Shown: in pieces, positions 40,217 to 47,300 of the stretch | How the letters are laid out: the number at the start of each line of letters is the position of its first letter | Position numbering within the stretch: the stretch's first letter is position 1 | Assembly: GCF_018977255.1 (NCBI RefSeq) | Contig: NW_024704746.1 | Coordinates: forward strand, 68,200,001-68,264,000 | Direction of reading: 5' to 3' | Source of the DNA: Callorhinchus milii | Taxonomy: Eukaryota | DNA length: 64,000 nucleotides | Notes under the pieces: model-generated | The model's database searches: none | What the model was told of the DNA's origin: nothing | The model's input: only the letters and a program-made list of their open reading frames with translations | Program-made: the position numbers and the translations under genes

Positions 40217-41493
40217 GGAGAGACAGAGTGTGGGTGTGAGAGAGTGTGTNNNNNNNNNNNNNNNNNNNNNNNNNNNNNNNNNNNNNNNNNNNNNNNNNNN
40301 NNNNNNNNNNNNNNNNNNNNNNNNNNNNNNNNNNNNNNNNNNNNNNNNNNNNNNNNNNNNNNNNNNNNNNNNNNNNNNNNNNNNNNNNNNNNNNNNNNNN
40401 NNNNNNNNNNNNNNNNNNNNNNNNNNTCCAGCGCAGATGTGATGGGCAGACGGTAAACTCCCAAACTGTTAAACTCTCTCTCTGATGCTGTGAATATTAA
40501 TTTTCTCTCTTCCGCAGTACAGTACAGATCCCCTCCTCGCTTCCCTTCTTGTTGTTCCATCTTGGAGATGTGAGTGCTACGTTCCTCCTCGGATATGTTC
40601 TCCGCGTAGGAGCCCAGGAGGGATTGGGTCCATCCAGCCCACCGCGCCGGTTTAGATCAGGAGATTCGTCAGACAGAAGGGCCGAGGTTGCGTTTGCTCA
40701 AATAGTGAGCGTTTGCACTTTACTGTAGCGTAGTGGTTAGCTCGCTCGCCTCGCAAGTGAGAGGACCCGGGTTCGATTCCTGAGGGGGGCAAAACCTTGG
40801 GCAAGTTTCCTTACTCCACACGCCTCTCCCACCATCGTGTCCGTGCTGGTGCTCGCTCCCCCCACTGGAGCTCTCTACTCTAATCCCAGAAAAAAAATTA
40901 CTCGCGCACTTCAAGGCTAGTTATGGGAACGTTGCTGTGTGCAAATTGCCTGATGTATTGGCTCTTCCAACAGTATAGGAAGACGAAAAAAAGACCAAGG
41001 TCCATCTAGTTCACCTTCTACCATCCTGGTAGTCACTTGCCACAGCAAAGGAGGTGTTGATAGCAATGAATCCTGTTATGGATTAGTCCACAACACAGTG
41101 GAAAGCTTTGGGAACCTTAGACCCAAAGTTGCCTGGTTCTTCCAAGCTGTATGTTTTGTGGGCGAAAGGCGGCAGCCAATTGCGCACAGCAATTAAGGAT
41201 CAAAAATCTATCTCATGTGTCACATTAGTCACATAGAAGTGAATAAATAATCAGACTTTTAATCGTTAAATCCACAACTGTTTGCGGGGACACTGCTATG
41301 GGCAATTGGCTGCTGCATTTTCCCCACAGTCACTACACTTTACAGTGTATCCTGTGAAGCGCTTTGAGACACCTCAAAGACGTGATAAGGCGTTGTGTCA
41401 AATGCCAGTATTATTATTGTTGTTGTTGTTATTATTATAGCAGTATTGAAGACGAGGCCCAGTGATTGAGCTTCTCATTTGCTACAGCTGGAG

Positions 41494-42899
41494 ATGAAGC
41501 GTCTCATCCAGACGTCTGTCTCTGAAGGGGTGACGGTGACCAGACTGTCCAGCTCCATCACCCTGCACCGGAGCCCGGCCCAGCCCCCACCGGCCAGCCC
41601 GAGGTGGGGAGATCGACAGTCTAAACCCCTGCTGCTGCTGCTGCCCTGGCTTGGAGCCCAGCCCCACTCCGTGGAGAGGTAACCCTGTAGCGTAGTAGTT
41701 AAAGCGCACACCTCGCAAGCCAGAGGACCCGGGTTTGATTCCCGAGGAGGGCGAAACCTTAGGCCAGTTTCCTCATTCCACGCGCCTCTGTTTACCAGCA
41801 GTAAGTAGGACCCTGGTTGATAATCGATTGGTGGATCCCTTTTCTGGGGGGAAATATCCCCTAAAAAAAATAATAATTCGGTCACTCAATCCACGACCGT
41901 TTGTGAGACACTGCTGTGCGCAATTGGCCACAAAATATATAGTCACTGCACTTTACACTTTACAGAGGCGTCTCAACGAACTGATAAGGCGCTGCGTAAA
42001 TGTAATTTGTTGTTGTTGTTGTTGTTGAGGTACCGGCAGATCTATTACCCTGAGGGCTATGACGTGCTGACGGTGGAGAGCTGTCTGGGACACTTCCTGT
42101 GGCCTGGGCGGGGGCTGAGCCACGCTGCCCGTGTGCTGGAGCTCCTACAGAGCGAGCGCTTTGCCTCGCGCCCCCTCCTCCTCCACGCCATCTCCCTGGG
42201 GGGCTACACCTTCAGCCAGATGATGATCCTCACCCTGAGGGACCCCTCGCTCCACACCGCCTTCAGTCAGCGCCTCACCGGCCAAATCTACGACAGTCTG
42301 GTGATCGGGAGCCTGGAGAGGATGGCGAAAGGTTAGCGTCCATTTCCCGAAACTCTGGAACTCTCTCCCTCAATCCCTCTGGCTGGCCCCCTCCCTCCCT
42401 CCCCCCCTCCTTCCCTCCCTCCCTCCCCCCCTCCCCTCGACGTGCTGTACCGGCCGAGCTCCAGGACTCCACAGTGAGTCCCCTGCACTCGAGTGGCCCG
42501 GACTCCAGCTAACCTTCTCGTCTCCTGATTCCAGGTGTTTCCCAGATGTTGTCCCATTCCCGGCTGGAGCCGCTGGTCAGGCGTTTGGTGCTCCTGTACT
42601 TCGGCCTGTTTGCCGGCAGCACCGTGCGGCACTACCGCACTGCAGTGGAGGTCTTCCGGAAGCTTCCGTGCCGGGCCCCGGCCCTGGTCTTCTCCTGCGG
42701 GGACGACCCGCTGAGCGAATGGCCCGAGCTGGAGGGGCTGCTGCAGAGCTGGCGGGGGAAGGGTTTGGCGGTGCGCAGCAAACACTGGGCACGATCCCGG
42801 CACGCCGGCCACCTCCGCCAACACCCCCGGGAATACCGGGAAACACTGCGCAGCTTCCTGCAGTCGCTCGGAGGCTTGCGCTTGGCAGCCAAGTTATAG
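41494..42899 (+). CDS. TMEM53-like / DUF829 alpha-beta hydrolase-fold protein (~283 aa) with C-terminal AKL
   Basis: Exons 41494-41678, 42030-42331, 42535-42899 in frame; motifs PLLLLLPWLGA, LLLHAISLGG, IYDS, DDPL, SRHAGHLRQHPREY; acceptor at 41488 implies upstream exon(s). Confidence 0.82.
41679..42029 (+). mobile_element. Full-length tRNA-derived SINE coinciding exactly with an intron
   Basis: Head starts at the GT donor, (TTG)n tail ends at the AG acceptor, GAGGTA at both ends. Confidence 0.88.
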
Positions 42900-44346: not shown

Positions 44347-47300
44347 ATGCTCAAAGCCCCAGCCATGCTCAATGCTGAATGGCCGTGTTTGCAATCGGAG
44401 AAGCCAGGGCAGGGGACCGCGGAGATCAGCTGCCCCGAAGCTGCCGCCTGGCACGCTCCCCGCTCTGTCCCGGCAATGCTGCCCCATGACTCGGTGAAGG
44501 TGGGTTTGGTCAGCCCATGTGGTGACTATCTGACCGCACAGAGCAACGGCACCGGAGTGAAGTTAGACAAAACCGAACTGGGCGCCAATCAGGTGATTGA
44601 TTCAGCAATAATAATATAATAATAATAGCAACAACATAAATAAGCCTTACATTTGATTTAGTGCTTTTTCGTGTCTTTGAGACAACAACAAACACAAAAT
44701 GACATTTGTATAGAGCCTTTCGCGTCGGGAGGACTTTCCGAGGCGTTTCACAGAATATATTGTAAAGTGGATTGACTGACTTGGCATTTTTTGAGCAAAA
44801 CGGGGCAGCCAATTGCGTACAGCAGTGAAAGTGATCCGTCAATCGACTAACAACTGGGTTTCTACTCACTCCGAGGTAAATAGAGGCACGTGGAGTGAGG
44901 AAACTTAATGATCCTGCCCGGGAATCAAACCCAGGTCCTGTCGCTTGTGAGGTGAGCGCTCTAACCAATGAGCTACAGGACTCCATGATGGTTGAGTGGA
45001 GCTCACACTTATTTTTGTTGGCAGTAATGAAAGATTAATTTCAGGATCTCGACGACCGAGCCAGAGAGGAGCCGCGCTAATCTGATGTCGCTGTCAACAG
45101 GAGTTGGTTCATAGCCTGTTGTGTGAAATTTTCATTGCGGGTTCTTTGGTCTTGAATTAGTACAAGTACATAATAGTAACCCGCTGGGTACAGTGTTTCT
45201 TTCCATCACAGCCATTATCATCACCATTAAATAATCTGTAGCTGAATCATTTACAGCAATGAGATGTTGGGAGGTGTGTGGGTGGTAATGCAACCCATCT
45301 CAACATGGATTCCTGACGTCTTGTAAATACCCAGTCTTGCTGCCAACTAGATTATTATTATAATAATATTATTTGGATAGATTATTACCGGCATGCCCTT
45401 GCATTACAGAGAAGCCTGCCTCAGCGTAGCGGCTGAAAGCGAGGCCACCGATGGTGGAACCGAGGGCACGGGGGACAAGCAGGAGGCCGGAGCCAGTCGA
45501 GCGGAGGCAGCGGGTAGTGGGTTGGGGGGTAAGCAGGTCGGAGGGAGGTGCCTGGGCATGAAGGGATCTGAAAATGAGTGCTAGGATCTTGAAATCGATC
45601 CATTCGGCGATAGGGAGGCTGTCAAGGACTGGTGTGATGGGGGTACGGAGTTTGGCACAGGAATTCTCTCTCACTCCCTCTGCTCTCTCTCTCTCTCTTG
45701 CTCTCTCGGGCAGGTCTGGGATGTGAAGGTGAAGTCCACGGAAGGATGCCAGACCCTGGTGGAGCTGAAGGGACCACATGGGCTTTCCCTGACCACTGAT
45801 GACATGGGTCAGGTCAAGTGTGGAGTCACGTGCTCCAACGCCAACATCTTCTTCCTGGAGACACAGTGTAACGGAACCTGGGTGTTCCGCTCGCTCAAGT
45901 TCGGGACCTACCTGGAGATGTTGGAGAACGAGGTGACCTGTTTGATGAAGACCCCCACCAAGTGCTCCATGTGGACCCCACACCTGGCCATCCACCCCCA
46001 TGTTGTCCTCTATCACCTCGAGACCAAGTGCTATACTCGCCTTCTCCCCGCACAGCACCAGCTCTGCACAGACTCCCCTTTGCCTCACTCCAATGAGTTC
46101 AACTTTATCCTGCACTTTGAAAAGGGCAAGTACCACCTCCAGACCAGTGACCTTCGCTATCTGTCCTTGGATGACCAGCTCCTCAGTAAGAGGTCCAAGA
46201 TGACCGCCTTCTCTCTGCACCTGAGGCCGGGCAACATGGTGTCCTTCCACGCTGCTCACCAGAGGGTGCTCTACCCCCATGGACGGACTGGGATTCTGAC
46301 TGTAGGGTCAAACCCCCCGGATTTGTTCCAGTATTTCGCCCTGAAGAAGAGCAAGCCTTGGGTCAGCATGAAGACCGCCTCCAAGAATTACCTGTCCGTC
46401 AACTACGGTGAGAAAGTTGGGTGGTATTTTCCATTCCTAGAATCCTGTTCTTTTTCTCCCCCCCACATCGTGTCTGTGCTGGGGCTCGCTCCCCCACTGG
46501 AGTTCTCTACTCTATTCCTGTAGCTCAGTGGTTAGACCACTCGCCTTGCAAGCGAAAGGATCTGGGTTTGATTCCTGGGCAGGTTCCCCTTACTCCACAC
46601 TCCTCTGTTTACCCAGCAGTAAGTAGTAACCCAGTTGTTTGTCAATTGGTGGATCGCTTTCTGGGAGGGTAATAATCCCTCCAACAAAAATGTGGTCACT
46701 CAATCCACGGCTGTTTGTGGGGACGCTGCTGTGCGCAATCGGCTGCCGCGTTTCACCCACAAAATACAGTTAATCCAGTTTGCAGTATATTCCGTGAAGC
46801 GCTTTGAGACGTCTTGAGAAGGTGCTGTATCAAATGCAAGGATAGTTAGTTAAACAGTATGTGTTGGTGACATTTCTCCCCCAGGGGTGGAGATCTACGC
46901 TCGCTTTGACCATCTCACACGGCTCTCCGTGTTTCAGTTTGAAGCGACGCAGAAAGGGGAGATGGTGAGACTTCGATCCTCCGACAATCAGCTCCTCGCT
47001 CAGGTAATGTTCATCTCACAGTCTTCACCCCTCACTCAGCGAACTTCACTCCTCTCCCTTTCAAAACTGCCAGCATGGAGTCCTGTAGCTCAGCGGTTAG
47101 AGCACTCGCCTCGCAAGCGAGAGGACCCGGGTTTGATTCCCGGGCAGGTCAGGGCGAAACCTGGGGCGTTTCCTCACTCCACACACACACACACACGCGC
47201 GCGCGCCTCTGTTTACCAGCAGTGAGTAGGAACCCGGTTGTTAGGCGACTGGCGGATTGCTTTCTGATGGGTAATAATCTCTCCAAGAAAAAAAGAATAA

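Follow-up and report, generated by a model that had tools for sequence, protein, structure and literature searches.

A probable SINE-mediated gain of a coding intron in a TMEM53-like gene of Callorhinchus milii

The si:dkey-5i3.5/TMEM53-like gene of Callorhinchus milii carries, within the 64-kb stretch of DNA analysed here (the window, numbered from its first letter), a coding intron that is a single SINE. The intron is a phase-2 GT-AG intron of 351 nt (41679-42029, on the plus strand, as are the other features of the gene), and it is made of one full-length tRNA-derived element in the sense orientation. Very probably it is a one-off case of SINE-mediated intron gain: an old insertion into a continuous coding exon, which duplicated the target GAG|GTA and which is now removed exactly. 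Both splice sites are best read as coming from the target duplication.

Results

The insert interrupts the coding sequence of a single-copy gene

The gene specifies a 283-aa product, P0002, annotated as 'transmembrane protein 53-B'. Its first coding segment (41494-41678) begins with M1 and ends two bases into the codon of R62; it corresponds to the N-terminal part of P0002 and has no Pfam match. The SINE intron splits codon 62 in phase 2, 185 coding nt from the start of the ATG at 41494. The exon downstream of the insert is 100% identical to P0002. It is the second coding exon (42030-42331, DUF829 profile positions 19-109), and it is separated from the last coding exon (42535-42899, ending with the stop codon; profile positions 151-242) by an older phase-1 intron of 203 nt at G163 (42332-42534), the point at which homologous sequences from fish and sharks break off too. 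DUF829 scores above the Pfam cut-off in both of these exons. In the unspliced reading frame a TAA stop is met at once, at 41680-41682, whereas with the SINE removed the DUF829 reading frame is intact over 283 aa. Excision from GT to AG yields ...V-E-R-Y-R-Q..., the same junction as in P0002, and the restoration of E-R-Y-R proposed in the preliminary description is thereby borne out. The P0002 model is already joined across the insert, and the RefSeq and UniRef gene models likewise join the coding sequence over the SINE.

The exon matches once in the C. milii assembly (G000), which shows no retrocopy of it. The only other DUF829 loci in the assembly are two TMEM53-type copies elsewhere on C5; these two genes are near-identical and lie in tandem about 5 kb apart (L315, L316, L318, L319; G000:C5:21669679-21675846). 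In the window, the TMEM53-like gene is followed by a fascin-domain gene (45585-47225). Past G163 the bamboo shark model P0007 continues into sequence that looks, by eye, like the frame at 46854-47225, which suggests that the bamboo shark has the same neighbour, with either a fused model or read-through. On the upstream side (41411-41493), a transcript contig described below (X5 contig 25) covers 41440-41493 and 29 letters further upstream, with the CAG near 41488 left unspliced; the 5' UTR may extend as far as the tail of the upstream SINE.

The intron is one SINE copy from end to end

In an alignment with its 29 nearest copies, the insert spans the first and the last of the 377 majority columns, covering 346 of them, and leaves 5 nt outside; the intron is SINE end to end. 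The initial description of the interruption as a full SINE thus holds, with the addition that its head is decayed. This tRNA-Ala-like head (41684-41755, end approximate) aligns with heads that ARAGORN calls as tRNA-Ala in 8 other copies in the window; in the focal copy itself ARAGORN made no tRNA call and Rfam gave no listing for the head. The family has about 40 matches within the window and 8903 first-look candidates in the assembly, the best 39 of which, other than the focal copy, are 76-83% identical to it. The tRNA-Ala heads of the sister copies, the dispersed high copy number and the (TTA)n tail of the family are those of a tRNA-derived SINE. A tRNA SINE of C. milii has been named SINEX-1_CM/SINE2-1_CM and paired with CR1-2_CM, in the portion of PMC3747384 available to us; by description, the basis of this comparison, it resembles the focal family in being tRNA-derived, abundant and from the same species.

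The copy is old, as judged from its divergence: it lies 17.9% from the majority of the 29 nearest copies, against a median of 9.7% for those copies themselves, and at 26% it is the most diverged when set against a mostly younger group of 82 copies. Elsewhere in the window, three minus-strand copies of the SINE (14579-14782, 17108-17315 and 19637-19835) share the same flanks and near-identical tails at a spacing of about 2.5 kb, and represent a local tandem triplication.

The SINE is removed exactly from a probable transcript

Contigs from four of 24 listed read runs were compared at the locus: X5, which we guess to be RNA, X1, which is probably DNA, X11 and X13. X5 contig 25 (1101 nt) aligns in three pieces, with 41678 joined to 42030 and 42331 joined to 42535, and so skips 351 and 203 nt. 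Because the older intron is also absent from it and the assembly shows no retrocopy, the contig is best read as spliced mRNA. The SINE is removed exactly in this transcript, on the evidence of one contig from one sample, a run that is probably RNA; the arithmetic of the contig places the donor in the left GAG|GTA and the acceptor in the right one. The junction 41678^42030, predicted from the DNA with the caveat that GAG is a weak acceptor, is therefore the one found, and GAG acceptors are rare in ordinary introns. The next CAG acceptor (42037-42039) was considered for the same contig and rejected, since the junction arithmetic does not fit. The X13 exon contig stops 26 letters before 42039 and X11 is without cover at 42001-42306, and neither was counted as evidence. 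Contigs drop rare forms, and give no levels of retention or mis-splicing.

A spliced product and an empty, pre-insertion allele have identical sequences, and X5 contig 25 differs from the assembly at two bases, 41477 and 42644, from which we take X5 to be another haplotype. (At 42644, a synonymous third position, X5 has C, as do two related organisms, B and C; the assembly has A.) It could thus be argued that the SINE is polymorphic or disrupts the gene, and that the joined transcript stems from an empty allele. We regard this as very unlikely. The copy is old, with a divergence of about 18% from its subfamily, while the frame flanking it is intact and about 48% identical to homologues, and the exon is present once in the assembly. 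Moreover, the insertion is found both in the assembly and in X1, a probable DNA run, whose contig 1 (41440-41738) is unbroken across the exon-SINE junction. Splicing of the element from an RNA that contains it remains our reading of X5 contig 25.

The element is bounded by a short target-site duplication of a length typical of its family

GAGGTA, at 41676-41681 and again at 42027-42032, is the longest direct repeat at the junctions of the insert, and its presence on both flanks agrees with what was first noted at the locus. The left copy is the source of the donor (GAG|GTAACC) and the right copy that of the GAG acceptor. The repeat alone proves little, because AGGT flanks the old intron of the gene as well, at both ends of 42332-42534; it carries weight because it is placed exactly at both ends of the whole element.

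The SINE family makes short target duplications, AGGT-containing ones among them. In a genome-wide pattern search, AGGT before the head was matched by AGGT close to the tail in 143 cases, compared with 43 for the control tetramer TGGA. In the loci fetched, AGGT stood directly behind the tail for 144 of 214 heads preceded by AGGT; the focal copy is counted among the 144, and so is at least one duplicate. The repeats are 4-11 nt long, mostly 5-6 nt, and 121 of the 144 rows exceed the 4 nt fixed by the selection. Among 26 copies unselected for AGGT, repeats of at least 4 nt were found in 2, not significantly different from shuffled sequences (mean 3%, maximum 19%). Looser patterns based on the tail gave mostly chance matches (315 and 301), and 60 of their loci, together with five listed matches, were included in the duplication scan. 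In 23 of the 26 unselected copies, which come from the window and from fetched loci, T stands directly before the GGAGTCC head; the position before that is G in 13, and several repeats overlap the head. This bias suggests a 5' start that varies, with microhomology favouring GT at the junction.

Homologues suggest that the exon was formerly continuous

Among 46 homologous ORFs from Logan/ENA, 33 run in frame through the site of the SINE and break at or just after the G163 intron; these ORFs are presumably unspliced DNA. In a quick tree all 33 group with ray-finned fish proteins, and P0002 groups with two shark proteins (support 81). The ray-finned fish homologues, the only group whose exon structures were compared, thus appear from their reading frames to have no intron at this position. 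No unspliced ORF from a shark or another chimaera was present among the homologues, for search lengths of 55 to 2000 aa, and four of ten short homologue matches begin past the site and are uninformative on it. The shark models also diverge at G163; being spliced protein models, they are silent on the SINE site. In the two TMEM53 paralogues the intron is in phase 0 and lies 25 nt downstream of this site. Sliding of an intron from the paralogue position was considered and rejected, as it would have to account for both the 25 nt and the other phase. In the related organisms B and C the SINE family occurs in thousands of contigs and the orthologues of the exon are about 85-90% identical; among the contigs listed for the two organisms none crosses the site. 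Over 71 codons compared with organism B, at least 11 synonymous and at least 14 non-synonymous codons, and no stop, were seen among the rows listed, a rough and weak comparison of which no use was made.

The same data bear on whether a cartilaginous-fish ancestor already had an intron at this position, into which the SINE landed and from which the remaining intron sequence was later deleted. SINEs are dense in this region, AGGT flanks ordinary introns too, and the intron-free structures come from ray-finned fish, with none from a shark, a ray or another chimaera. However, such a history would have to leave only 5 of the 351 nt outside the SINE majority columns and a 6-nt repeat, of a length typical for the family, exactly at both ends of the element; the GAG acceptor, moreover, follows directly from a duplication, and the intron is absent from the 33 fish ORFs and lies elsewhere in the paralogues. 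We therefore give an overwritten older intron only a small chance. The original proposal of intron gain at an AGGT site is upheld by the anatomy of the insert, by the spliced contig and by the 33 intron-less ORFs, while the part of it that concerns ancestral absence extends as far as the ray-finned fish homologues in which that absence was seen.

The focal copy departs from the family norm where splicing may require it

The donor of the focal copy, GAG|GTAACC, is unusual within the family: a GTRA start is found in just 5 of 143 other rows, and the commonest donors over all 144 rows of sense copies are GTGGAG (61) and GTCCTG (20). At the 3' end, an AG just before the tail is kept in 81 of 82 other copies, whereas the focal copy is without it and thus has 39 AG-free nt before the acceptor. 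Its tail, (TTG)7 at 42007-42027, differs from the family norm of (TTA)n, TTG exceeding TTA in one of 82 other tails, and is likely to serve as the pyrimidine tract. Candidate branch points (41981-42006) are A41984 and A42005, at -46 and -25, respectively. The ends of the element do not, as a rule, bring ready-made splice signals with them, since sense donors are weak and the AG before the tail is nearly always retained.

The residue at the split codon is K in nine, and H, N and R in one each, of 12 aligned homologues; a phase-2 intron at AG|G requires an AGG codon for Arg. The antisense copies matched have an internal ACAG|G near their end, which was a requirement of the search pattern. Of 90 antisense copies (L321-L410), 50 would present a GTAA donor where the SINE tail follows the AGGT duplication; cryptic donors or imprecise introns could arise from such tails.

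Other AGGT-flanked copies of the family were not found within host-gene domains

It had been suggested that this abundant SINE might behave as an introner element in the lineage. Patterns were used that sought AGGT-flanked copies in both orientations, and 137 other sense copies and, for the antisense orientation, 90 of 121 matches were examined. Both flanks were open over at least 22 codons in 45 of the 137 sense and 17 of the 90 antisense copies. The 100 peptides from sense flanks gave RVT_1 twice and three weak, sub-cut-off matches on single flanks, and the 36 peptides from antisense flanks gave RVT_1 once; no Pfam domain of a host gene was found on the flanks of any of the other copies with AGGT duplications (0/137 sense, 0/90 antisense). 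The SINE copies with RVT_1 matches (L076, L204 and L329) lie in or beside LINE reading frames, and the flank of L098 is one that we take to be CR1-like. The coding share of the genome is estimated at about 3%, so that in the absence of selection three or four of the 227 copies should lie within coding sequence in the sense direction; none was seen, and most coding landings therefore seem to have been removed. Copies with diverged heads, short exons and regions outside Pfam escape the survey.

That the family is an introner, which has made many coding introns in chimaeras, could be argued from the hundreds of copies with AGGT duplications in either orientation and from the GTAA donor of so many antisense copies; decayed copies, which are expected among old introns, would also escape a survey of this kind. 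On the other hand, the sole matches above cut-off were to RVT, most sense copies have weak donors and keep the AG before the tail, and fewer intron changes are reported for C. milii than for any other vertebrate in the comparison, bony vertebrates included, in the part of PMC3964593 available to us. One supplement of that article, in the portion available, has no match to 'intron gain' or 'SINE'. The idea of a family of introners is thus unsupported, within the limited sensitivity of the survey, no host gene having been found beyond the focal one, and we consider it highly improbable.

Discussion

We favour the view that the SINE would have been inserted by LINE-driven retrotransposition into what was most likely a continuous coding exon, with duplication of the target GAG|GTA. 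With the left GT and the right AG as splice sites, one copy of the target and the original frame remain. The insertion may have been survivable because the duplication provided an AG|GTAA donor and placed the T-rich tail before an AG|G; loss of the competing AG and the change of the tail from TTA to TTG, at insertion or later, may have helped the weak GAG acceptor to be used accurately, and the SINE-bearing allele would then have become fixed. We see the intron as an infrequent side effect of a highly abundant SINE whose insertions leave short duplications, and not as the work of an intron-making specialist.

The mechanism itself is already known from the SINE-derived intron of rice CatA, from notothenioid slc26a2 and from Alu-derived introns in 3' UTRs; apart from the main text of PMC12130899, the papers discussed below are represented by portions of their text. 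In the AGGT model, an insertion duplicates AGGT and thereby creates a donor AG|GT and an acceptor AG|G (Yenerall and Zhou, 2012; PMC3443670). The focal intron is like this model in its AGGT target, its duplication-borne splice sites and its unchanged coding sequence. The table of cases that accompanies the model, in the portion available, has entries from Oryza, Drosophila, Oikopleura and Zea, with no vertebrate among them (PMC3443670). The intron of the rice catalase A gene (Iwamoto et al., as cited in PMC2394776 and PMC3151243) is a plant case, which we compare through the descriptions of the citing papers.

For vertebrates, it was stated in 2007 that introns born from SINEs had been unreported (Sela et al., PMC2394776). 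Four cases of Alu intronization in human last exons, all of them in 3' UTRs and alternatively retained, are described in the same article (PMC2394776). These cases resemble the focal one, in that an exonic SINE gave rise to a new vertebrate intron; they differ from it in that their splice sites lie inside the Alu or the exon, whereas the focal intron is coding and bounded by the duplication. A coding case is intron 3 of notothenioid slc26a2, which arose from NTE-1, an element with putative terminal inverted repeats, and which was lengthened by a second element (Torii et al., 2025; PMC12357937). Here too a mobile element produced an intron in a vertebrate coding exon, with its GT-AG in direct and inverted repeats. 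However, the notothenioid intron involves an inverted-repeat element and an extra insertion, whereas the focal intron is one tRNA-derived retroposon with nothing added. In contrast, the SINE in exon 2 of dog PTPLA, which likewise lies between direct repeats within a coding exon of a vertebrate, disturbs splicing and lowers the wild-type transcript by 99% (PMC3465307), a harmful outcome and not a fixed intron.

In surveys of introners about 5% of the classified families are non-LTR elements, and no introner pattern was reported for vertebrates in the portions available (Gozashti et al., 2022, PMC9860276; Gozashti et al., 2025, PMC12130899); neither 'SINE' nor 'Callorhinchus' occurs in the main text of PMC12130899. 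Introners resemble the focal element in that the ends of the element are the ends of the intron and in that a splice site is provided by the duplicated target, but they are families that make many introns, whereas one coding case was found for the focal family. The insertion acts like that of an introner, yet the family fails the test of numbers. A survey of intron gains on the human lineage counted 342 and, in the part of the article available, assigned no transposon origins to them (PMC12124190). Within the largely open-access literature covered by our search, no paper described the focal intron, and none reported a coding exon of a vertebrate in which a whole SINE had become a precise intron. 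More speculatively, and in our view rather unlikely, further and more decayed coding introns from the same SINE family might be scattered across chimaera genomes; the family would then be a weak retrotransposon introner and the focal case the first clean example in a vertebrate of a constitutive coding intron made of a whole SINE, with the steps of its domestication (the GTAA donor, the disappearance of the competing AG and the change of the tail from TTA to TTG) still readable.

Vertebrates have gained few introns, and in most cases the source is no longer recognizable; here the element, both copies of its target and the spliced product are all visible. Why inserted elements come to be spliced is a question named as open by Yenerall and Zhou, in the part of their article available (PMC3443670). 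The hundreds of sister copies with the same AG|GT ends make it testable which departures from the family norm accurate splicing needs. Moreover, if it is common to some families only, the intron would be a rare marker for the phylogeny of the chimaeras.
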